Shown: piece after piece, positions 5,766 to 46,730 of the stretch
How positions within the stretch are numbered: the first letter of the stretch is position 1
Layout of the letters: each line of letters begins with the position of its first letter
NCBI GenBank assembly: GCA_020059745.1
Contig: JAGVBK010000004.1
Location: 26,932 to 90,931 of the forward strand
Length of the DNA: 64,000 bases
Source: Candidatus Shapirobacteria bacterium
GTDB lineage: Bacteria > Patescibacteriota > Microgenomatia > UM-FILTER-40-11
Direction of reading: 5' to 3'
Position numbers and translations under genes: made by a program
Notes under the pieces: generated by a model
The model's input: only the letters and a program-made list of their open reading frames with translations
What the model was told of the DNA's origin: nothing
Database searches by the model: none

Positions 5766-5778
5766 AATTTGTCTAATT
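5766..5778. repeat. left arm of inverted repeat flanking the four-helix-bundle pseudogene (AATTTGTCTAATT)
   Basis: The 13-nt aatttgtctaatt at 5766-5778 is the exact reverse complement of aattagacaaatt at 6337-6349. It is embedded in AATTAGNC short repeats. Confidence 0.6.
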
Positions 5779-6329
5779 AGACTAATTCGTTCTTCTTTAA
5801 GAATTCTCGTCTCTTTCTAAACAAATTCTCTCTAAATCCCCCCTCCTCTACAAACTTTTTCTCTTGAGCTCTAAGTAATTGATCCAAAAGAAAGGTTTCT
5901 TTATAAATCAGGCAAATCATTAGGTTTGCAAACCCTTCGGGCTTTTCCAAACTCAAATTTGCCCAATTAGACAAATTAGCCAAATTAGTCTCTTTATCAG
6001 TTGTCTCTCGGAAAGCTCTAATCTTCAAAACCCTCTACTATCATTCTTTGACCAAAGGGAAAGTTTTCTTCTCCTTAGAAAGTCCTTAAAATCTTCGAGA
6101 AGTTCACCATAACTGGCCCTCGCCACCCCGGTAAGTTTAATGTTCCCTCAAAACTTTTTTCAAGAGAACCTTCAACAATATTCTGTTTACCTGATCTTGA
6201 GGCCTGGATCATTTGTTCAACCGTCCTTTTTTCAGAATATTCAGGGAGAAATTTCTGACAGAAGAGGATTGTTCCGTCGTCAATCGTTACCGCCAGCCTA
6301 TAAACAAGTAAGCTTTCACACCCTCCCAT
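5777..6329 (-). pseudogene. four-helix-bundle protein with suffix domain (23S rRNA IVS-type), disrupted by two frame changes
   Basis: ORFs 6329..6075 (…RTVEQMIQASRSGKQNIVEGS…) and 6028..5777 (…LICLIYKETFLLDQLLRAQEKKFVEEGGFRENLFRKRRE) are the ends of one family member. The conserved middle, KLTGVARASYGELLEDFKDFLRRRKLSLW, is readable only in a third frame across 6135..6030. Confidence 0.7.
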
Positions 6330-6336
6330 GTTTCCA

Positions 6337-6349
6337 AATTAGACAAATT
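6337..6349. repeat. right arm of inverted repeat flanking the four-helix-bundle pseudogene
   Basis: See the left arm at 5766-5778. The surrounding sequence 6334-6369 carries three AATTAG(A/T)C units. Confidence 0.6.
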
Positions 6350-6369
6350 TTTCCAATTAGTCAAATTAG

Positions 6370-6410
6370 TGGACCAGCTTGGATTCGAACCAAGGACTTC
6401 CAACTTATAA
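6370..6410 (-). pseudogene. tRNA 3' half fragment W (from anticodon-loop TTATAA to discriminator)
   Basis: Minus strand: TTATAA GTTGG AAGTC CTTGG TTCGAAT CCAAG CTGGTCC A. The T-arm is perfect. The acceptor strand CTGGTCC is the exact complement of the 5' half at 6628-6634. No 5' partner exists for its anticodon stem. Confidence 0.7.
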
Positions 6411-6514: not shown

Positions 6515-6589
6515 TGGTGGAGCCAGATGGACTCGAACCATCGACGGCTACTTTATAAGAGTAGTGCTCTACCACTGAGCTATGGCTCC
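6515..6589 (-). tRNA. tRNA-Ile (anticodon TAT) with encoded CCA
   Basis: GGAGCCA TA GCTC AGTGGTA GAGC A CTACT CTTATAA AGTAG CCGTC GATGG TTCGAGT CCATC TGGCTCC A CCA. All four stems are perfect Watson-Crick, with anticodon positions 34-36 reading TAT. Confidence 0.88.
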
Positions 6590-27961: not shown

Positions 27962-28990
27962 TTACTTTTTACAGATATGGACCGCCTCCTCAAGCAGCCG
28001 CCTGGCATAAGCCCATTCATTATCATACCAAGCACCGATTTGGATAAAATCATCAGCAACAACCGTCGTCATTCCCAAATCAACCACACAAGAAGCAGGA
28101 TTACCGATAATGTCACCGGAAACAAGCGGTTCTGAGGTGACTGCCAAAATTCCTTTCATTTTTTTCTCAGCTGCTCTGAGAAAAAGGCTATTTAACTCGT
28201 CAATCGTTGTTTTTTGGGAGATTCTAAAGTTTAAGTCTGAATAAGAACCACAGATAACCGGCACCCGGATCGCTGCACCTGCAAATTTACCTTTCAGATC
28301 AGGGAAAAGGGCCACCACTGATTCTGCTGCTCCGGTTTCCGTAGGAATAATGTTTTGCGCCGCTGCCCTGGCGCGATGCAGATCTTTGTGTGAACCGTCT
28401 ATCAGTTCTTGGTCTGAGGTATAGGCGTGAATAGTGGTTAAGGCCGCCTGCTCAATCCCATATTTTTCTTTAATAAGTTTCACAATCGGAGCCACACAAT
28501 TGGTGGTGCAGGAACCATTGGAAATCACCTTTTCTCCTTTATAGCGGTTTTCGTTTATTCCCATTACATAAAGCGGTACTTCACCGCCCTTTGGCGGAGC
28601 GGAAATAATCACTTTTCCGGCTCCTGCTTCCAGGTGTTTTTCCGCCTCACTTCCTTTTCGGAAAACACCGGTTGACTCAATCACCACATCCGGCTTATAG
28701 GCAAACCAGGGAATTTTTATCGGTTCTTTTTCTGCAAGTAAAGGGAAAAGCCTGCCGTCAATCAATAAAGAACCGGTTTCCCGCGAACCCTGAGCTTCGG
28801 CAACTTTTACTTCCTTGGGAAAAGCACGGTAAGTTGAATCATACTTTAGAAGCGTTGCCCAGCCTTCAGTCTCCATTGAACCGGAAGTATTTATTGCCAC
28901 CACTTCAATTTCATTCTGAAAATCAAGGATTGCTTGCCTGAAAACAATGCGACCAATTCTACCAAAACCATTAATTGCTAATTTAATCAT
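27962..28990 (-). CDS. gap: type I glyceraldehyde-3-phosphate dehydrogenase
   Basis: INGFGRIGR NAD motif and the active site SNGSCTTNC. Confidence 0.93.
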   Translation of the reverse strand: MIKLAINGFGRIGRIVFRQAILDFQNEIEVVAINTSGSMETEGWATLLKYDSTYRAFPKEVKVAEAQGSRETGSLLIDGRLFPLLAEKEPIKIPWFAYKPDVVIESTGVFRKGSEAEKHLEAGAGKVIISAPPKGGEVPLYVMGINENRYKGEKVISNGSCTTNCVAPIVKLIKEKYGIEQAALTTIHAYTSDQELIDGSHKDLHRARAAAQNIIPTETGAAESVVALFPDLKGKFAGAAIRVPVICGSYSDLNFRISQKTTIDELNSLFLRAAEKKMKGILAVTSEPLVSGDIIGNPASCVVDLGMTTVVADDFIQIGAWYDNEWAYARRLLEEAVHICKK

Positions 28991-30005
28991 TTTTCCCTCT
29001 TTTTAGAGCTTCAATTCCGGGAAGGGTGCCCTTAGCTAAAAACTCAAGACAGGCTCCTCCGGCAGTGCTTACATAATCCATCTTATTAAGAAGCTTAAAT
29101 TTGGTCAAGCTGGCAATTGTGTCTCCACCCCCAACAATTTTTAAAGCCAAAGAATCTGCCACTGCTTGGGCAACCTCTCTGGTCCCTTTCTCAGAACCCG
29201 GCTCTTCGTATTTTCCCATCGGTCCGTTAAAAACCAGGGTTTTTGCTTCTGAAATTATTTTTTTAAATTCTTCAATTGAGCTTTCGTCGATATCAGTGCC
29301 ATTTTTATTTAAAGAGGCCCAGATAATGTTTTCTTTGTCTTTTTCTTTTTGTAAAGGCAAAAGTCCGCCGACTAAAACCCAGTCAGCTTTTTGGGCAAAC
29401 TCATAAACATAAGACAGTTTTGTTTCCGGCTTAGCGCCGCCAATAATAAAAACCAGCGGCTTTTTGGGATTTTCTATTGTTTTTGAAAGGCTTGTCACTT
29501 CTTTTTCAAAATGAAAACCAGAAGCAGAGGGTAAAACCAAAGGCACACCCACAACCGAAGCATGCTTTCGGTGGCTAACTGCAAAAGCCTCATTAATATA
29601 AATTTCAGCAAGTGAGCTTAATTTCTCTGTAAACTCGGGACTATTTTCTTCTTCTCCTTTAAAAAATCTTAAGTTTTCCAAAAGAAGCAAATCCTCTCCT
29701 AAATCATAAAAAGAAAAAAACTTCATTTTTTTATATCCGGCAAGGCTTCTTTTCATCAGGCGGGAAATTTCTCTGGCCACAGGAAGCATTTTAAGTTCCT
29801 CTACTTCTTTGCCTTGCGGCCTGCCTAAATGACCGGCAAGAATTATAAAAGCTTTTTTTTCAAGCAAATATTCAACCGTGGGCAAACACTCTTTTATCCT
29901 TGAATTTTCCGCGACCTCTCCCTCTTTCAGGGGAACATCTAAATCACAGCGCACTAGCACTCTTTTTTCTTTAAAATCAAAATCTTTAAGCCCTGGAAGT
30001 TTCAT
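28983..30005 (-). CDS. pgk: phosphoglycerate kinase (short, 340 aa)
   Basis: RCDLDVP, GHLGRP, the SHRKHAS-type motif and a GGGDT-containing C-terminus. It overlaps gap by 8 nt. Confidence 0.88.
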   Translation of the reverse strand: MKLPGLKDFDFKEKRVLVRCDLDVPLKEGEVAENSRIKECLPTVEYLLEKKAFIILAGHLGRPQGKEVEELKMLPVAREISRLMKRSLAGYKKMKFFSFYDLGEDLLLLENLRFFKGEEENSPEFTEKLSSLAEIYINEAFAVSHRKHASVVGVPLVLPSASGFHFEKEVTSLSKTIENPKKPLVFIIGGAKPETKLSYVYEFAQKADWVLVGGLLPLQKEKDKENIIWASLNKNGTDIDESSIEEFKKIISEAKTLVFNGPMGKYEEPGSEKGTREVAQAVADSLALKIVGGGDTIASLTKFKLLNKMDYVSTAGGACLEFLAKGTLPGIEALKRGKND

Positions 30006-30008
30006 TTT

Positions 30009-30452
30009 CTATTTTTGGTTTTTTTCAATTTCCTTAATTTTTTCCACTCTTCTTTGATATTTGTCACTTCCGGAAAACTGGGTTTCCAAAAACATCTGAA
30101 TTATTCCCAGGGTCTCTGTTTCAGAAAGAAAATCCGCAGGGATTGCCAGACAATTTATATCATCATCCCTTTTAGCCACTCTTATTTGCTGCTGAGAAAA
30201 GCCAAGACCGCAGCGAATACCGGAAAATTTATTGGCAACAATGTCTACTCCCACTCCTGAACCGCAAAAGAGAATGCCAAAGTCGCCTTTGCCTAATTTT
30301 TTAGCCACTTCAACGGCAAAGTCGGGGTAATCATCTTCGGGAGAAAGATGATCGCTGCCTAAATCCTCATACTGGTAACCTGAAGATTCAAGCCATTTTT
30401 TTACCTTTTCTTTAAGCTCAAAGCCCCGATGGTCCGCACCAAGATAAATCAT
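30009..30452 (-). CDS. rpiB: ribose-5-phosphate isomerase B
   Basis: LGADHRGFELKE and CGSGVG motifs. Confidence 0.88.
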   Translation of the reverse strand: MIYLGADHRGFELKEKVKKWLESSGYQYEDLGSDHLSPEDDYPDFAVEVAKKLGKGDFGILFCGSGVGVDIVANKFSGIRCGLGFSQQQIRVAKRDDDINCLAIPADFLSETETLGIIQMFLETQFSGSDKYQRRVEKIKEIEKNQK

Positions 30453-31117
30453 TAGTTTTCCTCAGACAAAGCGCTTAGTAACTCTCTTAATTTTTGTTCT
30501 TGGTTTTCTGCCAAAACCACAGCTGAAGAAATTAATACTCCCCTCGCCCCCAATTCTTTGGCCTTTACCAAATCTTCCTTCTTGTTGATTCCAGCGCCCA
30601 CAATTAAAGGAATTTCCCCGCAAATTTTTACTGCCTTGGCAACTGATTTGGGACTTACCTCTGTGATTGAGGTGGCAGTACCAATAAATTCGCTTATCTC
30701 ATAACCCAAAAAATCCGGTTTAAACTTAACCAGCCTTTTAAGCTGGCCTAATGTTTTAACGCAAACCATTGTTTTCAAACCATTTTGTCTGGCTTTAGAA
30801 ACCAAGTGCTTAACTGTTCCCGGAGGCAAAGGATGCTCGCTGTGGTTTAAAAGAGCGCCTTCTCCACCTGATTCTTTTACCGCCTCAGGCGTAATCCAGC
30901 CGGTAAATTTTCCGGGCAAAACATCGTCAAAATGCTGGACCCAAACCGGTTTTTTGATTTGGCTGGTAACCCGGTAAAGGTCAAGAGCCTGAACCACAGG
31001 AATAACGGAAAAGCCTTCTTCAGAAAATTTAAGGCAAATTTTGGCCAAGTTAAGGCTGTTTTCTCCGCTTGCTTCTTTGTAGGTTTTGAAGTTAACAAAA
31101 ACGCTAAAGTCTGACAC
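30452..31117 (-). CDS. tpiA: triose-phosphate isomerase, short archaeal-type (221 aa)
   Basis: The length and the LLNHSEH motif match archaeal TIM rather than the roughly 250-aa bacterial form. It has a 1-nt overlap with rpiB. Confidence 0.75.
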   Translation of the reverse strand: MSDFSVFVNFKTYKEASGENSLNLAKICLKFSEEGFSVIPVVQALDLYRVTSQIKKPVWVQHFDDVLPGKFTGWITPEAVKESGGEGALLNHSEHPLPPGTVKHLVSKARQNGLKTMVCVKTLGQLKRLVKFKPDFLGYEISEFIGTATSITEVSPKSVAKAVKICGEIPLIVGAGINKKEDLVKAKELGARGVLISSAVVLAENQEQKLRELLSALSEEN

Positions 31118-31121
31118 TAAC

Positions 31122-31652
31122 CTATTTTAACTCAAAATCAGCCAATTTGGTATAGACCGGGCCTTGGGCCGTTAGCACACTTTGGTAAAGGGATAAAACC
31201 CTTACCTCAAAATCAAGCTTAAGATCTAAAAAGGGTGGTTTGTTTACCCCCTTTTTAAAGCGATATAAAGTGACATGAGGCGTAAATTCAATCTTCTCCC
31301 TAAGTAAAAACCCGTTTTTTAAAAAACTATCAACCAATTTTTTATAAAGTCTAAAAAGCTTTTCTTTTTCACCGCCAACTTCAACCCAAACACCTTCAGG
31401 CTTGCTTTTCTTGCCAAAAAGACTGACTTTCCCAAGACTTAGCTTTATTTTTCCGGAAATTAAGTTTTCTTTAATAATTTTTTTAATCTTTTTAAGGTCA
31501 AAAGCATCAATTTCACCTATGAAAAGAAGGGTTAGGTGCAGGTTTTGTTTCTCAACCAACTTGGCACTTGCCCCTTTTGAGATTTCTTCAGAAAGAAAGT
31601 GAAGCCTCTCTTTAAGTTCCTCCGGTAAAAAGATAGCCACAAAAACTCTCAT
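31122..31652 (-). CDS. thpR: RNA 2',3'-cyclic phosphodiesterase (ThpR/LigT, 2H family)
   Basis: Two HxTx motifs: HLTLLFIGE and HVTLYRF. Confidence 0.85.
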   Translation of the reverse strand: MRVFVAIFLPEELKERLHFLSEEISKGASAKLVEKQNLHLTLLFIGEIDAFDLKKIKKIIKENLISGKIKLSLGKVSLFGKKSKPEGVWVEVGGEKEKLFRLYKKLVDSFLKNGFLLREKIEFTPHVTLYRFKKGVNKPPFLDLKLDFEVRVLSLYQSVLTAQGPVYTKLADFELK

Positions 31653-31672
31653 GCCTAGATTATAATACGGTT

Positions 31673-32617
31673 ATGGAAAACAAAAGAAAACTTCTTCTGA
31701 TTGTCCTTGTTCTTTCTTTGTTTACCTTGCTTTTCTTTAGGCTTTTTTTCCCAAAACCAGCTGTGTCTCCTTTAAAAAAAGAATCAGGCGAAAAAGAATA
31801 TTTTCCTTCCTTGCCTCCCCAAAGAACAATTGTTTTAAGAGCGGTTGGCGATGTCATGCTCGGCAGAATGGTAAATGTCAAAATGCTTGAAAATAATGAT
31901 TTTAAATACCCTTTCCTAAAAACAGCAGAACTTCTTTCCACAGCTGACCTCACTTTCGGCAACCTTGAATCCCCAATTATTGATAACTGCAAAACCACAA
32001 AAACTGGCATGGTTTTTTGCGGAAGAAAAGAATCAATAGAAGGCCTGTTTTTTGCCGGTTTTGATATTGTTAGTATCGCCAATAATCATATTCTTAATCA
32101 GGGGCGCGAAGGAAGAAAACAAACCATAAAGCTGCTTTCTGAAAAAAATATTCTTGCCTCAGATTCTGAAAATCTGGCAATTGTTAATGTAAACGGCGTT
32201 TCTTTTGGTTTTCTATCGTTTGATTTAACTGTTACAAACAACCCTGAACCTCTGGTTAAAAAAGTAAAAGAAAGTGTTTCAAAAGCAGACTTGGTGATCG
32301 TCTCCCTTCACTGGGGCGCGGAATACTTAAAAGAACCATTCCCTTGGCAAAAAGAGCTGGGAAGAAAACTAATTGATGAGGGTGTAAAAGTCGTTATCGG
32401 CCACCACCCCCATGTTACCCAACCAACTGAAGAATACAAAGACGGTCTTATTTTTTATTCTTTAGGCAACTTTGTTTTTGACCAGATGTGGAGCGAGGAG
32501 ACTAAAAAAGGCCAGATTGCCGAGATTTTCTTTGAAGAAAAACAAATTAAAAGCTACAAAACCATCCCTATTTACATTACCGACTACTGCCAACCTGTAT
32601 TAGGAAGTAGTAGGTAG
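31673..32617 (+). CDS. CapA-family metallophosphatase (poly-gamma-glutamate capsule synthesis-like)
   Basis: AVGDVMLGR, NLESP, ANNH, HWGAEY and GHHPH motifs. The last five codons and the stop lie inside the left inverted repeat of the adjacent cassette. Confidence 0.85.
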   Translation: MENKRKLLLIVLVLSLFTLLFFRLFFPKPAVSPLKKESGEKEYFPSLPPQRTIVLRAVGDVMLGRMVNVKMLENNDFKYPFLKTAELLSTADLTFGNLESPIIDNCKTTKTGMVFCGRKESIEGLFFAGFDIVSIANNHILNQGREGRKQTIKLLSEKNILASDSENLAIVNVNGVSFGFLSFDLTVTNNPEPLVKKVKESVSKADLVIVSLHWGAEYLKEPFPWQKELGRKLIDEGVKVVIGHHPHVTQPTEEYKDGLIFYSLGNFVFDQMWSEETKKGQIAEIFFEEKQIKSYKTIPIYITDYCQPVLGSSR

Positions 32618-32986
32618 GTTGTAGTTAGTAGTAAATTGATTAATTAATTTATTAAGCATTTTCATGACTTCTTCTAATAAACTATCCACTTTCTCATAAT
32701 TCAAATTTTTTCCAAAAGATAGCTCTTTTAAAATTTCTATCTGAGTCTCAAGCTCTGCTCCAGACCCAAAAGCAATTCTTAGAAATTGACAATAATCCTT
32801 CTTGCTCCCGCGCCTACTTCCCTCAGCTATATTTGAAGGAATAGAAACAGAGCATCTTCTCATTTGAGAAACAAGACCATAAATTTCCGATTTGGGAAAA
32901 TTTTCTGTCAACTCGAAAATAGCAATAGCCAACTTCTTGGCTTTCTGCCAAACTATCAAATCTTTATAATTGCTTACTTTGTTCAT
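32600..32986 (-). CDS. four-helix-bundle protein (23S rRNA intervening-sequence protein family)
   Basis: YKDLIVWQKAKKLAIAIFELTENFPKSEIYGLVSQMRRCSVSIPSNIAEGSRRGSKKDYCQFLRIAFGSGAELETQ is the family signature. Confidence 0.9.
   Translation of the reverse strand: MNKVSNYKDLIVWQKAKKLAIAIFELTENFPKSEIYGLVSQMRRCSVSIPSNIAEGSRRGSKKDYCQFLRIAFGSGAELETQIEILKELSFGKNLNYEKVDSLLEEVMKMLNKLINQFTTNYNLPTTS
32603..32633. repeat. left imperfect terminal inverted repeat of the four-helix-bundle cassette
   Basis: ggaagtagtaggtaggttgtagttagtagta aligns with the reverse complement of 32994-33033. They share the core GTAGGTTGTAGT and match at about 28 of 32 positions. Confidence 0.65.
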
Positions 32987-32993
32987 TTTGAAC

Positions 32994-33033
32994 TACTCCT
33001 ACCCACTACAACCTACTTACTACTCCCTACTCC
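32994..33033. repeat. right imperfect terminal inverted repeat of the four-helix-bundle cassette
   Basis: tactcctacccactacaacctacttactactccctactcc. It overlaps the stop codon of the ZIP transporter gene. Confidence 0.65.
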
Positions 33034-33749
33034 AAAAACATCCCTGCTATAAAAGGAAAAAGAACCCCAAAAAATGTTAGAACTATATTCAAAACCTTGC
33101 TTTTTTTGTGAATTTCCGGGATCAGGTCTGAAGCAGCGACATATAAAAAACTGCCCGCAGCAACGGCTAAAAGAAGCCCAACCACCTCTCCATTAACTTC
33201 TCTTAAAGCAAAAGAAGAAATAACCGCACCAAAGGGTGTGGCCAAGGCAACGGCCGAAGAATACTTGATTGCTTTGTTAACCGAGTATTTGCCATAAAGC
33301 ATAACTGCCATTGAGGAAATCCCCTCCGGAAACTCATGAAGTAAAACCGCCAAGGTAGAAAGAATCCCCAAACTAAAAGATGCTTCAAAACCAGCTCCAA
33401 TCACAGCGCCGTCAATTAAGGAGTGTACCAAAAGCCCGACCCAGGAAACTAAAGTAAAGGTTTCATGGGCTTCACAGTTTTCCTTTTCTTTGCAGACATG
33501 AAGAGATAAAGAATGCTCCAAAATATAAAAAAGTAAAAAAGAAAACAATACCACCGTAAGCGCTCCTGGATAAAGCTCCAAAGACTCGGGCAGTAAGTGA
33601 AGAAAGGAAAAAGAAAGTAACACCCCAGCGGAAAAAGAAATAAGGTAAATCAGGTTTTTTTGCGCCCAATCTGCTTTTTTAGCCATCAGGTAAACACCCA
33701 AAAAAGTGGCCAGACCAGCCAACATGCTAAAAAGAAAGGTGTTGAGCAT
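33027..33749 (-). CDS. ZIP-family divalent metal transporter (ZupT-like)
   Basis: Eight predicted TM helices and the HEFPEG motif. Confidence 0.85.
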   Translation of the reverse strand: MLNTFLFSMLAGLATFLGVYLMAKKADWAQKNLIYLISFSAGVLLSFSFLHLLPESLELYPGALTVVLFSFLLFYILEHSLSLHVCKEKENCEAHETFTLVSWVGLLVHSLIDGAVIGAGFEASFSLGILSTLAVLLHEFPEGISSMAVMLYGKYSVNKAIKYSSAVALATPFGAVISSFALREVNGEVVGLLLAVAAGSFLYVAASDLIPEIHKKSKVLNIVLTFFGVLFPFIAGMFLE

Positions 33750-33750
33750 A

Positions 33751-34458
33751 CTATTTATTATAGAGGATTCCCCAAAGGTCGTGCCGGCCCAGAAAGCTTT
33801 CTCTTTTAGTAAAAGGTTCTTTTACCCACTGTCCGCTTGGCTTAAGCAGCTCTTTTGTCCAAATCACGCAAGGCTGGATTATTTCCACCAAGCTAAAGCC
33901 TTTATGTTCAATGGCTTTGGCAATTATTTCTGTGGTTTTATTAAGATCAGAAACTGGCGTTCTTGCCAAAAAAGAGCCTCCGGAAACAACCGCCAAGTCA
34001 ATAGCAGAAAGCGGCTCAAAAGGGTTACCCTGCAATGTAGTTCTGGTTTTTAGCCCCTTGGGGGTGGCAGATGAAGCCTGGCCGGTAGTTAAGGCAAAAA
34101 CATAGTTGTTGTTTACCAGGACCGTAATATCGTCATTCCTTTGGGAGGCATGAACAAGGTGGTTTCCGCCTTCACTCACAATCCCACCATCCCCCCCCTG
34201 CGCAATCACAGTTAGTTTTGGGTTTGCCGTTTTTACGCCTACGGCAACAGGGATAGAACGACCGTGCAAAGTAGCAAAACCACAGAGATTAATGAAATTA
34301 ACCATGTTTGCCGAGCAACCAATATCATAGGTAATCACCACATCTTTAGGAGCCAAATTATTTTTAATAATGGCTTTCTTAACAGCAGTCAAAAAACTAT
34401 ATCCTCCGCAGCCCGGGCACCAGGTGGGAAGATTTGGGGTGCTTAAATCTGTGTTCAT
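33751..34458 (-). CDS. 2-oxoacid:ferredoxin oxidoreductase, beta (TPP-binding) subunit
   Basis: WCPGCG, and GGDGG followed by the NNxxFALTTGQ TPP motif. Confidence 0.88.
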   Translation of the reverse strand: MNTDLSTPNLPTWCPGCGGYSFLTAVKKAIIKNNLAPKDVVITYDIGCSANMVNFINLCGFATLHGRSIPVAVGVKTANPKLTVIAQGGDGGIVSEGGNHLVHASQRNDDITVLVNNNYVFALTTGQASSATPKGLKTRTTLQGNPFEPLSAIDLAVVSGGSFLARTPVSDLNKTTEIIAKAIEHKGFSLVEIIQPCVIWTKELLKPSGQWVKEPFTKRESFLGRHDLWGILYNK

Positions 34459-36071
34459 CGTTCTGCCTTTCTAAGCCTTTCTCTTATCTCGTGGTAAAAA
34501 AGGGGTCGGCCGTCATCTTTAAGAATTTTTTCCGTTTTAAGCTCGGTTTCTTTTTCAAGCAGGGAAGCAAGCTGCCCGGAGAAGTTACCTTCAATAACAA
34601 TAACCTTTTCAGCTTCTTTTAAAATGGTTTTTACCTCTTTCGGAAACGGCCATGGCCGCCAGAAATGAAGGTAGCCTAATTGAGGAAAATCATCAATAAG
34701 GTCAAGTAAAATTTCTTTGGTTGAACCCCAACCGACAAGAAAGGTTTTTGCTCCTTTTTTTCCGAAAATTTCAAATCCGCCTTTAAGGCTTTCTAGCTTT
34801 TTTGCCCTTTTTTCCATCATCTTTTGTCTATTTTGACTGTCATCATCAGAAAACCCATACTCGTTATGTTCATAGGAGTTGGTAATAAAAGCGGTTTGGC
34901 CGGGAAAAGCTCTTTTGGAAATACCATCTAACGAAAACTCGTATCTTTTGTAGCCATCAAGTTCTTTTCCTTCGGCTAATTTTCCCCTGTCAATTTTTAC
35001 TTTTATTTTTCCCAAAACATCTTTTAAAATGCTTAACCTGTTTTCCGCCAAGTATTTATCGGTCATTAAAATCACCGGAACTTGATAGCGCTCGGCTAAA
35101 TTAAAAGCCTCCAGGCCCAAACGATAAAGCTCCTCGGCGTCTCCTGGGGTTAAAACAATCCTGGGAAACTCGCCATGACCGGCATTAATAGCAAAATTAA
35201 GGTCAGCCTGAGAGGAAAAAGTAGCCATCCCCGTAGAAGGGCCTGTTCTTTGACCAAGCACTAAAACCAGCGGAATTTCCGCCATTCCAGCCAGCCCCAA
35301 ACCTTCAACCATTAAGCTGAACCCACCGCCCGAAGTGGCAACCATGCTTCTTTTACCAGCATAAGAAGCACCAATCGCAGCCATTATCCCGGCAATTTCA
35401 TCCTCAGGTCTAAAAAGCTTAATTTCCCTGTCAGAAAGCAGAGTTAAAATTGAGTTTATTGGTGTCATCGGGTAAATGGAAGCAAAGCGGCAATCTGCAT
35501 TTAAAATTGCTTTTGTCAGAATTTCGTTTCCGGAATAGTTTTCAATTTCTTTTTTTGTTTTTGGGGTCTCAATTTTAAAGCTTTCTTTCTGGTTTAAACC
35601 AAAGCCCTGAAAAACTGCCTTAAGATTAAGGTCAAGTACCTTTGGTTTGTCTTCAAAATCTTTGTTGACTTGTTCTTCAAGGATTTCTCTTTTAAACCCC
35701 AAAACACTCCATAAAAAGCCCAAGCCCGCAGTATTGATAACCAAAGGGTTACCGATTTCCTCGGCAATCTTTTCAAGGCCAATTTCCGAAGATTCAAAAC
35801 CTAAGCCGTTTTCTTTTAATTCCCCTTTATGCTCTTCAAAGTTTTTTTTACCAAAAGCAAGAAGAATATCAATTTTTTCCCGAGGCGTTAAAAAAGGCTT
35901 TTGAGAAAAAATGATTTGTATGTGGTTGTCTCCTCCTCTGATTCGGGAAGGGTACTCAGGATAAACCAAAGTAAAAAAACCAAGCCGGTTTAAGGCTTTG
36001 CTTAAAGTCTCTCCAGCTTGCATAACTCCTGCTCCCGCCGGACCTGATATTTTTAAAGCATATCTTTCCAT
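34455..36071 (-). CDS. 2-oxoacid:ferredoxin oxidoreductase, fused gamma-alpha subunit
   Basis: N-terminal POR gamma-like domain (ISGPAGAGVMQAG) fused to the alpha domain (YPMTPINS). It has a 4-nt overlap with the beta subunit. Confidence 0.85.
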   Translation of the reverse strand: MERYALKISGPAGAGVMQAGETLSKALNRLGFFTLVYPEYPSRIRGGDNHIQIIFSQKPFLTPREKIDILLAFGKKNFEEHKGELKENGLGFESSEIGLEKIAEEIGNPLVINTAGLGFLWSVLGFKREILEEQVNKDFEDKPKVLDLNLKAVFQGFGLNQKESFKIETPKTKKEIENYSGNEILTKAILNADCRFASIYPMTPINSILTLLSDREIKLFRPEDEIAGIMAAIGASYAGKRSMVATSGGGFSLMVEGLGLAGMAEIPLVLVLGQRTGPSTGMATFSSQADLNFAINAGHGEFPRIVLTPGDAEELYRLGLEAFNLAERYQVPVILMTDKYLAENRLSILKDVLGKIKVKIDRGKLAEGKELDGYKRYEFSLDGISKRAFPGQTAFITNSYEHNEYGFSDDDSQNRQKMMEKRAKKLESLKGGFEIFGKKGAKTFLVGWGSTKEILLDLIDDFPQLGYLHFWRPWPFPKEVKTILKEAEKVIVIEGNFSGQLASLLEKETELKTEKILKDDGRPLFYHEIRERLRKAER

Positions 36072-36079
36072 TTTTTGGA

Positions 36080-36475
36080 TTATTTCTTTCTTCTAAAATC
36101 TTCAATCGCTTTTTTGACCGCATCGGCAGCCAGAACAGAGCAGTGCATCTTTGCTTTTGGCAACCCGCCTAAAGCTTCAGCAATGGCTTTATTAGTTAAG
36201 GCAAGTGCCTGGGAAAGAGGTTTACCTTTAATAAGTTCTGTTGCTATCGAACTGGTAGCAATTGCCGCTCCGCAGCCAAGTGTCTGAAACTTAACATCCT
36301 TAATTATTTCTTCACCGTTCTTTTCCTCGACCTTAATAAAAAGCCTCATAATGTCTCCGCACACTCTGTTGCCAACTGTCCCCACACCATCGGGGTTTTT
36401 TATTTCCCCTAGATTTCTTGGATTCTGAAAGTGATCAAGGACTTTTTCTGAATATAAATTACTTAAATCTGACAT
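36080..36475 (-). CDS. nifU: Fe-S cluster assembly scaffold, NifU/IscU N-terminal type
   Basis: Three conserved Cys contexts: NRVCGD, LGCGAAIA and KMHCSVLA. Confidence 0.9.
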   Translation of the reverse strand: MSDLSNLYSEKVLDHFQNPRNLGEIKNPDGVGTVGNRVCGDIMRLFIKVEEKNGEEIIKDVKFQTLGCGAAIATSSIATELIKGKPLSQALALTNKAIAEALGGLPKAKMHCSVLAADAVKKAIEDFRRKK

Positions 36476-36496
36476 AAAATAGCTCTAAATATTAAA

Positions 36497-37672
36497 TCAT
36501 AACTTTGGCGTCATTTTCCTTATATCCTCAATTACCCGGGGAAGCTTTTCCAAAACATAGTCAATATCTTCTTTAGTGGTTTCTCTTCCCAAGGAAAACC
36601 TAACTGAACCATGAGCTTCTTCCGGAGGTATTCCCATTGCCAAAAGAACATGGGAAGGCTTAAGCTCTCCCGAAGTACAGGCCGAACCCGAAGAAGCAGC
36701 AATTCCTTCTTTGTCCAGTCTTAATAAAACCGCCTCGCCTTCAACATCTCTAAAACTGAAAGAGGCAAGGCCCGGAAGCCTTCTTTCCGCATCTCCAGTT
36801 AAAAATACTCCCGGAATTTTTTCCAATACCCCCTTAATAAGCCGATCTCTTAAAACCGTTACTCTATTTTTGTTTTCTTCTTTTTCTTTTGAAGCAAGCT
36901 CAAAAGCTTTTGCTGCTCCCACAATTAAAGGCACTGCTTCCGTACCCGGACATAAACCAAATTCCTGGTGGCCACCAAAGTAAAGCGGGCTTAAGCTGAC
37001 ATCTTTTTTAACATACAAAACACCAACCCCTTTTGGCCCGCCAAACTTGTGCGGACCTAAGCTTAACAAATCCACTTTCAGCCTTTTAACATCAAGAGGT
37101 AAATATTCAAAAAATGCAGCGGCGTCGGTATGGAAATAAACCCGCCAGTCTTTTTTGCCTTTATTAAAGGCATTTATTATTTCTCCGATTTCTTCGACCG
37201 GCTCAATGGTCCCCACCTCGTTGTTGGCAGACATAACGGAAACCAAAAGGGTTTTTGTTCTTAAGGCCTCTTCTAAAGCTTTAAGGTTAACCTGTCCTTC
37301 CTGGTTAACCGGAAGATAGGAAACTCGGTAACCTCTTTTTTCTAGAGTAATGAAAGTGTCTAAAACCGCATGATGCTCAATTTCGGAGGTTATAAGCTGG
37401 CCAACTTTTTCAGGAAACCTGCCGGTTAAGCCCAATATTGCCAGATTATCGCTTTCAGTAATTGAGCCGGTAAAAACAATCTCTTCCGTCTCGGCATTAA
37501 GAATAGAGGCGATTTTTTCTCTCGCTTCTTCAACCGCAATTCTTGCTTCCTTGCCAAAAGAATGAAGGCTTGAGGCATTGCCAAACTTTTCCCCCCAGTA
37601 AGGCCTCATTGCCTCAACAACTTCAGGCCTTACTGGAGTCGTTGCCGCGTAATCAAGGTATACCTTATCCAC
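36497..37672 (-). CDS. nifS: cysteine desulfurase NifS/IscS
   Basis: PLP-lysine context SLGPHKFGGPKGVG and the active-site loop SSGSACTS. Confidence 0.92.
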   Translation of the reverse strand: MDKVYLDYAATTPVRPEVVEAMRPYWGEKFGNASSLHSFGKEARIAVEEAREKIASILNAETEEIVFTGSITESDNLAILGLTGRFPEKVGQLITSEIEHHAVLDTFITLEKRGYRVSYLPVNQEGQVNLKALEEALRTKTLLVSVMSANNEVGTIEPVEEIGEIINAFNKGKKDWRVYFHTDAAAFFEYLPLDVKRLKVDLLSLGPHKFGGPKGVGVLYVKKDVSLSPLYFGGHQEFGLCPGTEAVPLIVGAAKAFELASKEKEENKNRVTVLRDRLIKGVLEKIPGVFLTGDAERRLPGLASFSFRDVEGEAVLLRLDKEGIAASSGSACTSGELKPSHVLLAMGIPPEEAHGSVRFSLGRETTKEDIDYVLEKLPRVIEDIRKMTPKL

Positions 37673-37677
37673 CTGTC

Positions 37678-37944
37678 CTATGCTCCAAAACAGCTCCCCC
37701 CCTCAGGGCAAAGCAGTTTAACACGATAATAAACTTCCCGACCTTCTTTTCTGCTGGCCAGCAATCCTTCTCCCTTCATCTCCTTGAGATGATAGGAAAC
37801 TGTTGGCTGTTTTAACTTCATTATTCTGGTAATATCAGCCACTGTTTTTTCGCCGTGGGTATAAAGGTACTCATAGATCTTCCTCCGCGAAGGGTCCGAC
37901 ATCTGGGGAATTGCAAACGGGCAATGAACATCAATATTAGTCAT
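37678..37944 (-). CDS. ArsR/SmtB-family transcriptional regulator
   Basis: 88-aa winged HTH (RRKIYEYLYTHGEKTVADITRIMKLKQPTVSYHLKEM). It is the first gene of the nifS-nifU operon. Confidence 0.8.
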   Translation of the reverse strand: MTNIDVHCPFAIPQMSDPSRRKIYEYLYTHGEKTVADITRIMKLKQPTVSYHLKEMKGEGLLASRKEGREVYYRVKLLCPEGGSCFGA

Positions 37945-38017
37945 ATTTATAGATGATAATCTATACTTTAATTGCCTGTCAAGAGGGAATTTAACTATTT
38001 TTGCTAGAATATGCTAA

Positions 38018-38791
38018 ATGAGCACACAAATCTCAGTAATCATTCCTGCTTACAATGAAGAAAAAAATATCAAAAAATGTCTTCAGTCATTAAAAGCCCA
38101 AACATTCCCTGAAAATAATTTTGAGATTATTTTGATTGACAACAACTGCCAGGATAAAACAGTGGAAATTGCTTCATCGTTTAAGGTAAGGGTAATTAAA
38201 GAGAAAAAACAAGGCATAACTTACGCCCGGATTAAAGGTATCAACAATAGTCTTGCGCCGATTGTCGCTTTCCTTGACGCCGACAGCTCGGTTAACCCTA
38301 ATTGGCTTGATTTTATATACCAAACATTAAGCAAAACCCCGAAGCTGGTCGGCATTGGTTTTGAAGGCAATCTTGAACCTAAAAACAGACTGGTCAAAAT
38401 TGCGGAAAGTTTTCTTCACTGGTTTTATTTTATCAATCCAGTTATGCCCGGGTATTGTTTTTCCTTTAAAAAAGAAGTTTATTTCGCCTGCGGCGGGTTT
38501 AAGCCTGAAGTAAAATTCGGAGAAGATGTTTTTATTTCAAAAAAACTTAAAAGATTCGGCAAAATTATGGTTAAACCCGGTTTTGTAACCACTTCGTCGC
38601 GGCGTTACCTTAATTTCCTCTCTTTAATAAACTATGCTTACAAAACCATTATCTCTTTTATTGCCATTACTCTTTTTGATAAGTCACCGGTAGAACTGAA
38701 AGCTTTTTCCAAAGAAAAATTCCAATTAAACCTTCTTAAAAACAAGAATTTCCCTGGAAACAGTTTGACCGGGCCTGAAGAAAATAACTGA
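38018..38791 (+). CDS. family 2 glycosyltransferase
   Basis: VIIPAYNEE and FLDADS (the DxD-type motif). Confidence 0.85.
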   Translation: MSTQISVIIPAYNEEKNIKKCLQSLKAQTFPENNFEIILIDNNCQDKTVEIASSFKVRVIKEKKQGITYARIKGINNSLAPIVAFLDADSSVNPNWLDFIYQTLSKTPKLVGIGFEGNLEPKNRLVKIAESFLHWFYFINPVMPGYCFSFKKEVYFACGGFKPEVKFGEDVFISKKLKRFGKIMVKPGFVTTSSRRYLNFLSLINYAYKTIISFIAITLFDKSPVELKAFSKEKFQLNLLKNKNFPGNSLTGPEENN

Positions 38792-40006
38792 ATATCTTTG
38801 GGTTAGGTTAAGATTCAGCTTTTCCCAGCCTTCTGGTTTTTTAAAAAGATAATCTATTTTTTCAAAACCCATTTTTTTAAGTTCGTCCATTATTCCCAAG
38901 CTAAAAAATTCACTTTTAAAACGAAAAACAGGAAAGATAATGACAACACCCCCCCCATCTTTAAGGATTTTTCTAAACTCTAAAAATGCTTTAAGATAAA
39001 GCTCCTCAAGCTTTTTTATTTCTTTCTTTACTTTTCCCAAGTCAAAAGATCTTGCCATAGGCGAGCCTAAATAGGGCTCGGTAACAATTGCGCTTACGGT
39101 TTTGAAGTTTACTTTTGAAGAGATTTTAGTAACATCAGCTTGAAAAAGCTCAATCTTAAAGTCTTTTTTATTAAGATTAAACCTGCTAAAAAGCCACTCC
39201 AGGTTAAGCTTGGTATCGTTTATTGATTTTGCGCTTGAATCAGAACCAATCAAATTTTTATAGCCTAAAAGAGAAAGTTCCTGAAGCATGGTGCCGCTGC
39301 CGCAAAAGGGGTCCAGAAAAAGTTCTTTTTTTTCTTTGCCCGCCAGGTTAATCATCATTTTAGCAAGCTTTGGCGGAACCATTCCCGCCTTAGGATCTCT
39401 TGCCGGCCGACCGTAATCTCTTAAGCTATAGCTTTCATAATCCTGAACTATCTCTGTTTTACCAAGGTAAACACCTTCTTTGGCAGAAAACAAAACCATC
39501 TCAAAGCCTTCAGAAAGAAGATTGTGTTCTTTTACGGCCACGCTCGAAAACTCTCTTTCTTTGCGGGAAAGATAATTTATATTTATGCCTTCTTCCTCAA
39601 AAAGCGACTTTATCTTTCTTAAACTGGAAGGAACTTGATAAAAAATTTCATTAAGCCTCTTAAACCCGCCCCCTGCGCCGTAAACACTAATACCAAAACG
39701 GTAACTTTCTTTTTTTTGAGGAAGGAAAAATTCTTGAAATTCTTTGCTCTTAACTTCGGCAATAATTTCCTCAACACTTTGCTTTAAGGAAAAAATTCTG
39801 CCAGCCTTAACCACGCTTCCCAATTCTGCCATTAGAAAATTAATCTTAAAACTATCTTTGGTTTCAATTAGAAGCACTTCTTCTGAGGCAGCTAAAATCA
39901 AGAAATCATGTCCTTCTCTGGTAAGGGTATTAACCACATCAATTTTGCATAGCGTGTGGTTGGTTCCTAAAACAAAGAAATATATATTTTTTTCCATCAC
40001 GCTCAT
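38726..40006 (-). CDS. putative RNA (or DNA) methyltransferase, UPF0020/Trm11-like class I SAM enzyme
   Basis: Motif I DPFCGSGTMLQE and motif IV-like VTEPYLG, with an N-terminal non-catalytic domain. It overlaps the 3' end of the convergent GT2 gene by 66 nt. Confidence 0.6.
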   Translation of the reverse strand: MSVMEKNIYFFVLGTNHTLCKIDVVNTLTREGHDFLILAASEEVLLIETKDSFKINFLMAELGSVVKAGRIFSLKQSVEEIIAEVKSKEFQEFFLPQKKESYRFGISVYGAGGGFKRLNEIFYQVPSSLRKIKSLFEEEGININYLSRKEREFSSVAVKEHNLLSEGFEMVLFSAKEGVYLGKTEIVQDYESYSLRDYGRPARDPKAGMVPPKLAKMMINLAGKEKKELFLDPFCGSGTMLQELSLLGYKNLIGSDSSAKSINDTKLNLEWLFSRFNLNKKDFKIELFQADVTKISSKVNFKTVSAIVTEPYLGSPMARSFDLGKVKKEIKKLEELYLKAFLEFRKILKDGGGVVIIFPVFRFKSEFFSLGIMDELKKMGFEKIDYLFKKPEGWEKLNLNLTQRYSVIFFRPGQTVSREILVFKKV

Positions 40007-40022
40007 TTTCCCTCAAACCAGA

Positions 40023-41276
40023 CTAATTAGCAAATCTGTATGCTTTATCTCCTAAAAATCCATTTACTTCGCTTTTAATCATCTTCCCTTTTAAAAGCAC
40101 GGCCGGGTAAACCGTTAGTTCTCCAAATTCCTTATTAACCTTATCCATAGCCCAGGTCAATTTCTCTTTCTTTTGTTCTTCCGGAAAAAGGCTTAAAGTA
40201 AGAATCTTTTTATCGGCAAGAAGCCCCATCCAAACCCCCAAAAACCTGACTGAGCCCGGCCATTTCATTTTCAAAAAAAGCTCCCAAACAATCTCAAAAA
40301 GGTCACTTCCTTTATCAAGAAAGTACCTAACTGTTTTGTGTCTCCCGTCTCCTGTCCTTTCTCCGTTGGCAAGCTCGCCCCTAACGCTCAAACCCACCAT
40401 TCGGCCTGCCATTTTCATTTCTCTTGCTTTAAAAGCAGCTTCCTCGCAAAGATTCCTAAGAGTTGCTTTAATAAGATCAACTTCTTTTGTGTTTTCATAA
40501 AGAGTAAAGGTCCGGGAAACTGATTTTGCCTTGGAAATCTCACCCACCCTGGTAAGAAAAGAGTCATCCTCACCACAAGAAAGCTTTTTAAGCTCCTTGG
40601 CCCAAAAGGGGCCAACTCCTATTTTTAAATTCTCGATAGGAATTTCTCTTAGACTTTTAAAATTGGTTATTCCCATACTAAAAAGCTTTTTTTCCAAACG
40701 ATGGCCCAAACCACAAACATCGGAAAGTTTGGCTTTAAACAAAACCTTGTCTCGATTTTCAGGAGTGATTGCAAAAACCCCATTTGGCTTATTTATAGGC
40801 GAAGCTAGTTTTGCCAATAATCGGTTATAAGAAATGCCAATAGAACAAGTAATGTGTTCACCAACTTCTCTTTTTAAGTCTTCTTTTATTTTCTGACAAA
40901 TACCCGAAACTCCACTAAAAAAAGCTTGCGTTTGGGTAACATTCAAAAAAAGCTCGTCAATGGAAAAGACTTCTAAATCCGGAGAGTAACGGGAACAAAT
41001 CTCAATAAATCTTTTGGTTACTGAATAGTATTTATCAAAATCCGAAGGAACCAAAGCAATTCCTGGGCAAATTTTTTTAGCCTCATAAGAAGAAGTCCCT
41101 GTTTTTATGCCAATTTTTTTAGCTTCTTTAGAAGCAGCAATAATACAGCTCCTGCCCTCGCCTTTAATTATTCCCACTGGCCTACCTGCCAAGGCTGGGT
41201 TAGCCTGCTGTTCAACAGAGGCAAAAAAAGAATCCATGTCCAGATGCAAAATAATTGGCATAAACTTAAAACTCAA
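40023..41276 (-). CDS. dinB: DNA polymerase IV (Y-family)
   Basis: ILHLDMDSFFASVEQ and SIDELFLNV catalytic motifs, plus a little-finger domain. Confidence 0.92.
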   Translation of the reverse strand: MSFKFMPIILHLDMDSFFASVEQQANPALAGRPVGIIKGEGRSCIIAASKEAKKIGIKTGTSSYEAKKICPGIALVPSDFDKYYSVTKRFIEICSRYSPDLEVFSIDELFLNVTQTQAFFSGVSGICQKIKEDLKREVGEHITCSIGISYNRLLAKLASPINKPNGVFAITPENRDKVLFKAKLSDVCGLGHRLEKKLFSMGITNFKSLREIPIENLKIGVGPFWAKELKKLSCGEDDSFLTRVGEISKAKSVSRTFTLYENTKEVDLIKATLRNLCEEAAFKAREMKMAGRMVGLSVRGELANGERTGDGRHKTVRYFLDKGSDLFEIVWELFLKMKWPGSVRFLGVWMGLLADKKILTLSLFPEEQKKEKLTWAMDKVNKEFGELTVYPAVLLKGKMIKSEVNGFLGDKAYRFAN

Positions 41277-41379
41277 AATTCTAAACTCTAAATAATTTCA
41301 AAAATCAAATTTTAAATGTCAAAATTTTTGATTTTAAACATTTGAGTTTATTTAGGGTTTTGTGTTTGGTGTTTAGTGT

Positions 41380-41619
41380 TTAAAATATCTTCGTTATTTC
41401 CCAAGAAAATTTCTGTTGATTAAAAGCAAGCTCAAATACCGCATTTCCAGTATCAACTGAAAAGTAAGTAATTTTATCGCTGCCAATGTTTTTGGAGTAA
41501 ATAAAAACAGTTTGAAGAATTTTATAGTTCCGGTTGCGCCAGGAAAAAACAAAGGGTTTAATTCTTCCGTTTTCAAAGAGACAAACTACCCTGACTTTTT
41601 CGTTGATCTTTGTATCCAT
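41380..41619 (-). CDS. hypothetical 79-aa protein upstream of dinB
   Basis: Intact ORF in the same direction as dinB and the desulforedoxin gene. No motif recognised. Confidence 0.5.
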   Translation of the reverse strand: MDTKINEKVRVVCLFENGRIKPFVFSWRNRNYKILQTVFIYSKNIGSDKITYFSVDTGNAVFELAFNQQKFSWEITKIF

Positions 41620-46259: not shown

Positions 46260-46730
46260 ATGTTTCCATACGGATACGGCTATGGCGGTTATGGAGGTTA
46301 TGGCGCCCCTTACGGCGGATACGGCTATGGCGGTTATGGAGGTTATGGCGCCCCTTACGGCGGTTATGGTTACGGCGGTTATGGACCTGGTTATTGGGGA
46401 TACGGGCCCGACTGGGACTATACAGACTATTATGACTACAACAGAAACCTTGTTCTTGACGATAATGAAATTGAAGATCTGGTAAGTGACAATATCGCCT
46501 CTGACCCCTATATTCCCCAAAGGGATGTTAACAGTATTGAGGTAAAAGTAGAAGATGGCGTAGTTCACCTTTCGGGAACTGTACGCAATCGAAGAAGCAA
46601 GCCTCTTGCTTACGCTGATGCTTTTTGGAGCCGGGGGGTGGTTGATGTGCAAAGCAATATCAAGGTTGAAGAAAGAAGCCGGGAAAGAGAGGAAAGAGGA
46701 AGAAAGAAAGAAAAAGAAGAAAGACAATAA
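46260..46730 (+). CDS. Gly/Tyr-repeat BON-domain protein
   Basis: ORF track 46251..46730. ATG 46260 is preceded by AAAGGAGGTGA. It has an N-terminal (GYGYGGYGGYGAPYG)n low-complexity region. This is followed by the BON domain (IEVKVEDGVVHLSGTVRNRRSKPLAYADAFWSRGVVDVQSNIKV) and a KE-rich tail. Confidence 0.85.
   Translation: MFPYGYGYGGYGGYGAPYGGYGYGGYGGYGAPYGGYGYGGYGPGYWGYGPDWDYTDYYDYNRNLVLDDNEIEDLVSDNIASDPYIPQRDVNSIEVKVEDGVVHLSGTVRNRRSKPLAYADAFWSRGVVDVQSNIKVEERSREREERGRKKEKEERQ
46271..46384 (+). repeat. 45-bp tandem repeat (two perfect copies plus a partial third)
   Basis: 46271..46315 and 46316..46360 are identical (cggatacggctatggcggttatggaggttatggcgccccttacgg), followed by a degenerate partial copy. 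Each copy encodes the 15-aa GY unit. Confidence 0.9.

Follow-up and report, generated by a model that had tools for sequence, protein, structure and literature searches.

A four-helix-bundle gene between complementary heptamer arrays at the capA–ZIP junction of a Candidatus Shapirobacteria genome: a probable intervening-sequence-like cassette outside rRNA

We analysed a 64,000-nt stretch of a Candidatus Shapirobacteria genome (assembly GCA_020059745.1, contig JAGVBK010000004.1, positions 26,932 to 90,931 of the forward strand; hereafter the window, to which coordinates refer unless another locus is named) and focused on a 437-bp cassette at 32597–33033 that encodes a protein of the PF05635 family, known from intervening sequences (IVSs) in rRNA genes. 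The account that we consider probable is that an IVS-type gene cassette entered a site where the convergent genes capA and ZIP overlapped at their 3′ ends. We likewise think it likely, as one part of this joint reading, that the cassette is an Avd-like four-helix-bundle gene lying between two mutually reverse-complementary heptamer arrays. Its best reading is as a formerly mobile IVS-type element in a protein-coding context, and the most apt classification is that of an IVS-like cassette located outside rRNA. The preliminary description of this DNA had proposed a 23S IVS-type four-helix-bundle gene in a cassette of about 430 bp between two convergent genes, and all the elements were located: capA (31673–32617, plus strand; PGA_cap, Pfam E-value 1.1e-59) and the ZIP metal transporter gene (33027–33749, minus strand; Zip, Pfam 6e-33), both host genes identified by open reading frame (ORF) and Pfam match, enclose a gene for a 128-aa protein (32600–32986, minus strand; PF05635/TIGR02436, Pfam 1.8e-39). 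The GC content of the cassette is 34.1%, compared to 40.0% for the window, whose best protein matches point to Candidatus Microgenomates (candidate phyla radiation/Patescibacteria).

The arms of the cassette consist of tandem heptamers. In the sense of the cassette gene, the upstream arm (32993–33033, minus strand) contains six tandem heptamers of the form NNNNTAG (Tandem Repeats Finder, period 7, 6.0 copies), namely GGAGTAG, GGAGTAG, TAAGTAG, GTTGTAG, TGGGTAG and GAGTAG, followed by TTCAAA and then ATG. The array ends 6 nt before the cassette start codon, and its last unit holds a Shine-Dalgarno (SD)-like GGAG (32999–32996) with a spacing of 9 nt to the ATG. The downstream arm (32597–32633, minus strand), the reverse complement of the upstream one, has five heptamer units that read TAGGAAG, TAGTAGG, TAGGTTG, TAGTTAG and TAGTA on the plus strand and are of the CTANNNN type on the sense strand. 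On the plus strand, TAG begins at 32601, 32608, 32615, 32622 and 32629 in this arm, and CTA at 32993, 32999, 33006, 33013, 33020 and 33027 in the other. As an inverted repeat the arms (32596–32631 and 32999–33034) are 36 nt each, 83% complementary and 367 nt apart, which makes them the longest inverted repeat of the window among those with arms within 800 nt. The 12-mer GTAGGTTGTAGT has two exact occurrences, one per arm and in opposite orientations, and with one mismatch allowed it has three matches versus 0.13 expected by chance; stretches dense in GTAG/CTAC are confined, within the window, to the cassette arms. No direct repeat that could represent a target-site duplication was found outside the arms. 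The imperfect inverted repeats with a shared core, built from TAG/GTAG words, to which the preliminary description had drawn attention are thus borne out and can be described more precisely as tandem heptamers rather than generic inverted repeats.

Since the heptamer period is not a multiple of three, successive TAGs step through the reading frames, and both neighbouring genes end inside the arms. The ZIP stop codon is the TAG complementary to 33027–33029 within the first upstream heptamer, which probably also supplies the last ZIP codon (GAG); the TAGs at 33027, 33020 and 33013 close ZIP frames 0, 1 and 2, respectively. The capA gene, on the opposite strand, is closed in frames 1, 2 and 0 by the plus-strand TAGs at 32601, 32608 and 32615, the last of which (32615–32617) is its stop codon, and the final capA codons (GSSR plus stop, 32603–32617) are encoded by the downstream arm. 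The attribution of the last capA codons and stop to the left repeat and of the ZIP stop to the right repeat, made at first reading, therefore holds. With TAG in every frame on both incoming strands, both host proteins stay almost full length.

The history of the insertion can be read from relatives with and without the cassette. Among the closest relatives, the loci L083/L084 (GCA_018830165.1) lack the cassette and have capA and ZIP overlapping by 12 nt; L086, another close relative, also lacks it and has a 9-nt overlap. The empty loci and the window have the same synteny (TIM, LigT or RpiB, capA, then ZIP, TPP_enzyme_C and POR), and small palindromes are present at the empty junctions. The tails of both genes differ between empty and occupied sites: capA ends in CQPVLGSSR in the window, in CQPTIASGELP in L086 and in CQPGLAD in L084, and ZIP ends in MFLE, MFLR and RLIG, respectively. 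We extended the comparison by a metagenome survey of ZIP relatives with an alignment as query, a single ZIP protein as query having returned no relatives. This added about ten syntenic loci, four of them with the 12-nt overlap, one with a 36-nt overlap and three with unrelated small inserts, and in none of these additional loci was a four-helix-bundle gene found. The 12-nt overlap is common to five loci (L084, L103, L104, L107 and L125), which makes the overlapping arrangement probably the ancestral one. Since the closest relatives lack the cassette and have overlapping gene ends, the comparison indicates that the insert is derived, and it further indicates that the arrays replaced the native tails of capA and ZIP. 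The proposal that the cassette had inserted at the 3′ ends of both genes was to be judged by a search for empty capA–zupT junctions; such junctions were found in L083/L084, L086 and four metagenome loci, and the repeat-derived codons of the window are not shared by the empty sites.

Further copies, also suggested as a check, were found as orthologous cassettes at five loci of more distant relatives (L087–L091) and as a decayed relative within the window at 5757–6370 (see below). The cassette proteins of L087–L091 are the closest homologues of the window protein (74–81% identity), and all lie at the ZIP-to-capA site with the same borders. Their units are GAATTAG and CTTGTAG upstream and CTACAAG and CTAATTC downstream, compared to GGAGTAG and GTTGTAG in the window, and each downstream arm is complementary to its own upstream arm despite the changed units; unit number also varies between close relatives. 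This pattern indicates that the arms keep their complementarity while the units change between orthologous cassettes. The distribution does not follow relatedness: the empty loci L084 and L086 share 82% (ZIP), 75–77% (capA) and 70–72% (TIM) identity with the window, while the occupied loci L087–L091 share 62–64%, about 60% and 52–58%, respectively. Judging from these alignments, the cassette either inserted at this site on two occasions or passed from one lineage to another, and repeated exact loss would be less parsimonious. Between the window cassette and the orthologous ones dN/dS is 0.06–0.08, which indicates strong purifying selection and a functional protein, and the saturation of dS implies that the insertion is old. 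At the ZIP/capA site the cassette is thus old and probably no longer moving.

As an observation in its own right, the ZIP/capA junction is a recurrent landing place, with other inserts in place of the cassette in L100, L102 and L105. Those in L100 (2520–2833) and L102 (2520–2779) are about 260–310 nt long and hold an ORF for a small membrane protein, and that in L105 (2406–3120) is 713 nt long with a start that looks promoter-like on reading the sequence.

To place the cassette in its transcript context, we considered the surrounding genes and the predicted fold. ZIP is the final host gene of a long minus-strand operon and the cassette gene comes next on the same strand. Because no promoter-like site was found between ZIP and the cassette gene, the latter would form the final cistron of the ZIP operon transcript. 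The 456-nt transcript is predicted to fold with a 33-bp terminal stem formed by the arms, with −141.6 kcal/mol (z = −8.0) for the sense (minus) strand and −102.2 kcal/mol (z = −5.9) for the plus strand, and the arm duplex alone is predicted to have 33 pairs and −47.1 kcal/mol; the long stem that had been anticipated on folding the transcript is therefore recovered. In the mechanism that we propose, the arms would pair in the ZIP-operon RNA into a helix of about 33 bp enclosing the cassette, and RNase III would cut this helix and free the cassette RNA from the host transcript, by analogy with 23S rRNA IVSs. Excision of this kind would make the insertion nearly harmless anywhere, be it in an rRNA helix or between the genes of an operon. 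Where the flanking genes are co-directional, the helix would in addition place the upstream stop codon beside the downstream start codon. The window cassette itself does not lie inside a 23S or 16S rRNA helix, since Rfam models matched four tRNAs and no rRNA in the 64 kb; in the cassette region there were no Rfam matches at the gathering threshold and none at E ≤ 10. Its wider neighbourhood encodes GAPDH, PGK, RpiB, TIM, LigT, CapA, ZIP, OFOR, NifU and NifS.

The cassette protein belongs to PF05635 (134.6 bits versus a cutoff of 33.8) and to TIGR02436 (E-value 1.3e-37, 128.4 bits versus a cutoff of 24). An AlphaFold2 model (pLDDT 89.3) has four helices (residues 7–27, 32–58, 62–88 and 98–123), and the last ~10 residues (TTNYNLPTTS), of which the last six are predicted to be disordered, are encoded by the downstream arm. 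Foldseek matched the model to Xcc0516 (2GSC; template modelling (TM) score 0.83, 41–44% identity), a profile search against 2GSC gave an E-value of 1.6e-30, and BT_0352 (2RLD) was also among the best structural matches, in agreement with a four-helix-bundle fold. The cassette protein may be homopentameric, the indication for this being the five chains present in each of 2GSC and 2RLD. The family alignment of 29 sequences has 34 invariant columns, with the conserved motifs SIPSNIAEG and ELETQ. There was no match to the PADLOC anti-phage defence models, no homologue in 50,697 phage records, and no record in an exact-sequence lookup of the window protein.

The family is large: a profile search puts PF05635 at 30,625 representatives at 50% identity. 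In some long representatives, P0277 (628 aa), P0345 (502 aa) and P0332, P0335 and P0351 (420–434 aa), the bundle forms the N-terminal ~120 residues; such proteins could be fusions formed by read-through into the host gene downstream, or artefacts of gene calling.

We next surveyed the family as a whole. A genome scan with the family alignment gave 80 loci. We analysed the 77 in which the ORF is intact and the flanks are sufficient; they come from Patescibacteria, Bacteroidota, Acidobacteriota, Planctomycetota, Firmicutes, Proteobacteria and other phyla. When all fetched loci were scanned for eight conserved rRNA motifs, no cassette embedded in rRNA was found. At nearly all loci, tandem 7–9-nt repeats lie upstream of the gene and recur downstream as their reverse complement. 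Strong periodicity characterises 55–57% of arms versus 3.6% of control positions, with period 7 dominant: successive upstream TAGs are 7 nt apart in 103 cases and 8 nt apart in 31, and successive downstream CTAs 7 nt in 95 and 8 nt in 42. The units are cassette-specific, even for two cassettes 3 kb apart in one genome, and arms pair more strongly with their own partner (mean −43.3 kcal/mol) than with arms of different cassettes (−28.3 kcal/mol; p = 5e-15). With respect to the ORF, TAG has a fixed orientation (upstream 3.56 per locus, downstream 0.82), and on the sense strand 52% of upstream arms close each of the three frames with a TAG, versus 6% on the antisense strand. The commonest word, TTAG (48% of units have T at position −1), contains a stop codon on both strands. 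In both arms, five is the commonest number of units in a periodic TAG run (17 and 19 loci) and four the next commonest. Arrays without any TAG are found in many loci of other phyla, with units such as GGGGTTC, CAGTGGA, GGCAATG and CAGGAGT.

The host genes around these cassettes are diverse. Neighbours span 126 and 95 Pfam families, with no recurrent partner, reverse transcriptase or nuclease, and sites that do recur are T4SS-pilin/PrgI (seven loci of the candidate phyla radiation, CPR), sdhA/sdhB (four Flavobacteriia), GroES/GroEL and PglZ/BrxL. The cassette gene shares its direction with the upstream neighbour at 64 of 71 loci (~90%) and with the downstream one at 58 of 68. Among the neighbours, TAG is the stop codon of 37 of the 64 upstream genes and of 18 of the 28 convergent ones. 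At 22 of 28 loci, at most 12 nt separate the last CTA unit from the start of the next host gene (median 4 nt), and only one of these 22 close starts (among L001–L065) is preceded by an SD-like motif, which suggests that translation is either coupled across the stem or near-leaderless after cleavage. Taken together, the survey indicates that PF05635 genes of many phyla lie within one and the same design and are almost always oriented like the host gene upstream of them.

A few surveyed loci are of separate interest. L002 and L007 share a conserved stretch, AAAAATCAACATAGCGCCAA, between the upstream array and the ATG (at about 2935–2995 in each) that looks promoter-like by eye, with a TTGACA hexamer before it in L002; some cassettes may thus carry their own promoter. 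Cyanobacterial plasmids have the same heptamer arms. On an Anabaena sp. 90 plasmid (L098, cas6–4HB–cas4, 4HB being the four-helix-bundle gene) the arms are nested, with outer GGTGACA/TGTCACC heptamers and inner GGGAAGAGG/CCTCTTCCC. An exception is a Pseudanabaena galeata plasmid (L095, also cas6–4HB–cas4), where the arrays are direct rather than inverted: about 14 CTAAAAG units upstream and a long CCAAAAG run downstream, in the same orientation, at about 1085–1200 and 1565–1680. Plasmids alpha and gamma of Nostoc sp. PCC 7120 (L092/L093) both encode the identical protein WP_010994075.1 beside transposase genes; the surrounding DNA is 91–94% identical, and only the downstream heptamer array (CTCTGCC) is kept.

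The closest known counterpart is the IVS in 23S helix 45 of Coxiella burnetii, which has 428 nt, a 28-bp terminal stem and an S23p (PF05635) ORF, with three or four tandem GACAGAT heptamers, strain-variable in number, directly upstream of the S23p ATG (PMC4990558). Its stem is cut by RNase III, with a cut at the first repeat, and the S23p protein is apparently not made, the ORF being in decay (PMC4990558). The two elements are alike in protein family, length (428 versus 437 nt), stem (28 versus ~33 bp), heptamers upstream of the ATG, a GC content below that of the host and a patchy distribution. They differ in that the Coxiella IVS sits in an rRNA helix and the window cassette between two protein-coding genes, and in that the window arms, unlike those of the Coxiella IVS, carry TAG in every frame and so provide the stops of the neighbours. 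RNase III cutting is reported for the Coxiella IVS, and we infer it for the window cassette by analogy. The likeness to the stem-plus-ORF architecture of rRNA IVSs suggested in the preliminary description consequently extends to size, stem and heptamers and not to location. The Leptospira IVS is another 23S comparator (PMC4990558), PF05635 ORFs have been reported from CPR bacteria within insertions of the 16S and 23S genes (PMC11270868), and the family has been noted inside cas loci (PMC3936711).

Several points weigh against an excised, formerly mobile IVS-type cassette. The window protein is conserved, unlike the decaying Coxiella ORF, so the analogy is incomplete. Across the survey arm pairing has no strand bias (duplex stronger on the sense strand in 42 loci and on the antisense strand in 35) and no G–U bias (42 versus 50 wobble-type mismatches), and hence complementarity could equally be kept at the DNA level. 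The saturated dS gives no sign of recent movement, there is no second intact copy of the cassette in the window, and the patchy distribution could also be explained by recombination or loss rather than transposition. No RNase III gene signature was matched in the window, which is uninformative as the window is part of a genome.

Of the rival explanations, the one that survives best puts protein binding first. The RNA-binding protein HutP reads UAG-N4 triplets and TRAP reads (G/U)AG repeats. By analogy with these, the arrays could be mainly binding sites for the cassette's own ring-shaped protein in an autoregulatory ribonucleoprotein (RNP), with about five UAG-N4 units per homopentamer; the stem would then be secondary to, or in competition with, protein binding. 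We regard this as unlikely, and it is not exclusive of the insertion of an IVS-type cassette. It would account for the mode of five units in the TAG runs of both arms, and it fits the five chains of the relatives 2GSC and 2RLD and the pentamers that Avd of diversity-generating retroelements (DGRs) forms in an RNA–protein complex (8UB7). The fixed TAG orientation, which a plain stem would not need, and the strong conservation of the protein, with its invariant columns, point the same way. However, many arrays in other phyla lack TAG, and the units vary between cassettes within one genome while the conserved residues stay constant.

A wider reading takes the PF05635 cassettes together as a single, very large class of self-contained elements at the RNA level that has gone unrecognised, with the rRNA IVS as a special case, and we find it doubtful. 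Its parts can be stated separately. The class may comprise ~30,000 protein clusters at 50% identity; the arrays may make the insert transparent to the host by stopping ribosomes in three frames; and the fold may join the upstream stop to the downstream start and allow coupled re-initiation on a gene without an SD sequence. The arrays may also let RNase III excise the cassette from the transcript, and an Avd-like pentamer may bind about five UAG-N4 units of its own RNA. This pentamer could be an ancestor or cousin of the DGR Avd–RNA complex.

Less probable again is that the arms act as DNA, that is, as terminal inverted repeats or as a hairpin or cruciform for a trans-acting recombinase, comparable to a miniature inverted-repeat transposable element (MITE) with cargo, with the RNA stem as a by-product. 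Complementarity that is strand-symmetric and without G–U bias is what such a role would leave behind, and the presence/absence polymorphism with sharp borders at the ZIP/capA site and the small palindromes at the empty junctions also agree with it. On the other hand, the arms are cassette-specific even within one genome, unlike ends recognised by a transposase, there is no target-site duplication and no recombinase is consistently nearby. Moreover, the ~90% orientation bias with host transcription, together with the fixed TAG orientation, indicates a constraint at the level of the transcript.

We consider it more improbable still that this is a host gene of the ordinary kind, inherited vertically and equipped with a regulatory hairpin, whose patchiness reflects repeated loss. 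An orthologous cassette at the same site in distant relatives would be expected under vertical inheritance, as would saturated dS in a protein under purifying selection. Set against this, the genomes with empty sites are closer to the window organism than the occupied ones, the 12-nt overlap in five loci is probably ancestral, and loss would have to rebuild both native gene tails. In addition, the neighbours are unrelated in 126 contexts, and the family also occurs in CPR rRNA insertions (PMC11270868).

A last possibility is the Avd accessory gene of a DGR. Avd (bAvd; 4DWL, 8UB7) is likewise a four-helix bundle, related solved structures are pentameric, and Avd binds nucleic acid in an RNP, but its structural match to the cassette protein (TM 0.7–0.8) comes with 12–13% identity versus 41–44% for Xcc0516, and the motifs of the window family fit the closer match to Xcc0516. 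Despite this fold similarity and a weak similarity to bAvd (PF22296, 29.2 bits), we rejected a DGR Avd as extremely improbable, since the protein scores 27.4 bits against the NCBIfam DivGenRetAVD equivalog cutoff of 80, the neighbours are housekeeping genes, there are no TR or VR repeats nearby, and no reverse transcriptase was found within about 6–8 kb on either side (ORFs of at least 120 aa in 27962–41276, except 34455–36071, which is POR by synteny with L084, and the shadow ORF 31660–32082).

Three further candidates were tried and rejected: an integron cassette, as there is no attC site, target-site duplication or conserved ends; a MITE or other transposon with terminal inverted repeats, as the arms differ between cassettes even in one genome and there is no target-site duplication; and a plain terminator between convergent genes, as the stem encloses a whole conserved ORF.

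Other small repeats invite comparison with the IVS-like cassette. The Correia/NEMIS elements of Neisseria are MITEs that insert into operons and whose inverted ends form mRNA hairpins cut by RNase III. Unlike the cassette, they lack an ORF and generate target-site duplications, and their terminal repeats are conserved from copy to copy. The short tandemly repeated repetitive (STRR) sequences of cyanobacteria are intergenic direct repeats of heptamers. In Beggiatoaceae, intergenic TAACTGA heptamer direct repeats stop all three frames (PMC4679880). Both resemble the cassette arms in that the heptamers abut start codons, provide three-frame stops, overlap the end of the upstream gene and are usually followed by no SD sequence, but they are direct arrays only, with one sequence per genome and without complementary pairs around a conserved ORF. 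In Geobacter metallireducens, paired tandem octa-, nona- and heptanucleotide sites have been annotated as ‘global regulator binding sites’ (PMC2700814). Like the cassette arms, these are array pairs on opposite strands at a variable distance between operon genes (PMC2700814), and one heptamer consensus among them, MTYCTGA, resembles the arms of a Nostoc punctiforme cassette (L097). They differ in being read as IHF/HU-type sites with no link to PF05635 or IVSs, and some pairs are ~100 nt apart and hold no ORF. We propose a possible link between the Geobacter paired sites and PF05635 arms.

The complementary-arm design around PF05635 genes seems to be barely described. A literature search for flanking repeats around these genes, with subscription journals outside its coverage, returned only the Coxiella heptamers and the Geobacter paired sites. 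No paper linking complementary flanking arrays to the whole family was found, and with incomplete coverage an earlier description is possible. Members of PF05635 are found in rRNA genes, cas loci, bacteriophage exclusion (BREX) loci and housekeeping operons. What they share is a cis architecture in which co-varying complementary heptamer arms supply stop codons and abut the neighbouring genes, and it is the generality of this architecture across phyla that lifts the finding above a single-locus curiosity. It ties the puzzle of rRNA IVSs to a much wider element and offers a candidate explanation for the paired or heptameric intergenic repeats of Geobacter, cyanobacteria (STRR) and Coxiella. The function of the family becomes testable by asking whether RNase III processes the transcript, whether translation is coupled across the stem and whether the pentamer binds UAG repeats. 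For annotation, array-derived tails and TAG stops are to be expected in host genes beside such cassettes.

Finally, the window contains other repeats. The decayed second four-helix-bundle gene (5757–6370, minus strand) is split over three frames and lies between a gene for a XerC-like recombinase (4877–5740, plus strand) and a tRNA gene (6518–6589, minus strand). One of its ORFs (6329–6075) has a weak TIGR02436/PF05635 match and another (6028–5777) matches ‘4helix_suffix’ (TIGR04258, 1.2e-16). Arrays of 9-nt TAG words (CAAATTAGN) flank and interrupt this gene at 5757–5787, 5954–5988 and 6331–6370, and its arms at 5757–5787 and 5956–5986 are 81% complementary. Elsewhere, the heptamer arrays AAACTCA (4.4 copies, 41262–41292) and TTTAGTG (4.6 copies, 41351–41382) lie ~60 nt apart with no ORF between them, overlapping and just upstream of the start of an ImpB/DinB-type gene (40023–41276, minus strand). 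The fold of this region is weakly better than that of shuffled sequences (z = −2.1), and the pair may be an ORF-less relative of the cassette arms, or nothing. A 45-nt tandem repeat at 46271–46385 (2.6 copies, 94% matches) holds 9-nt and 15-nt sub-repeats with the consensus sequences CGGTTATGG and TTACGGCGGTTATGG.

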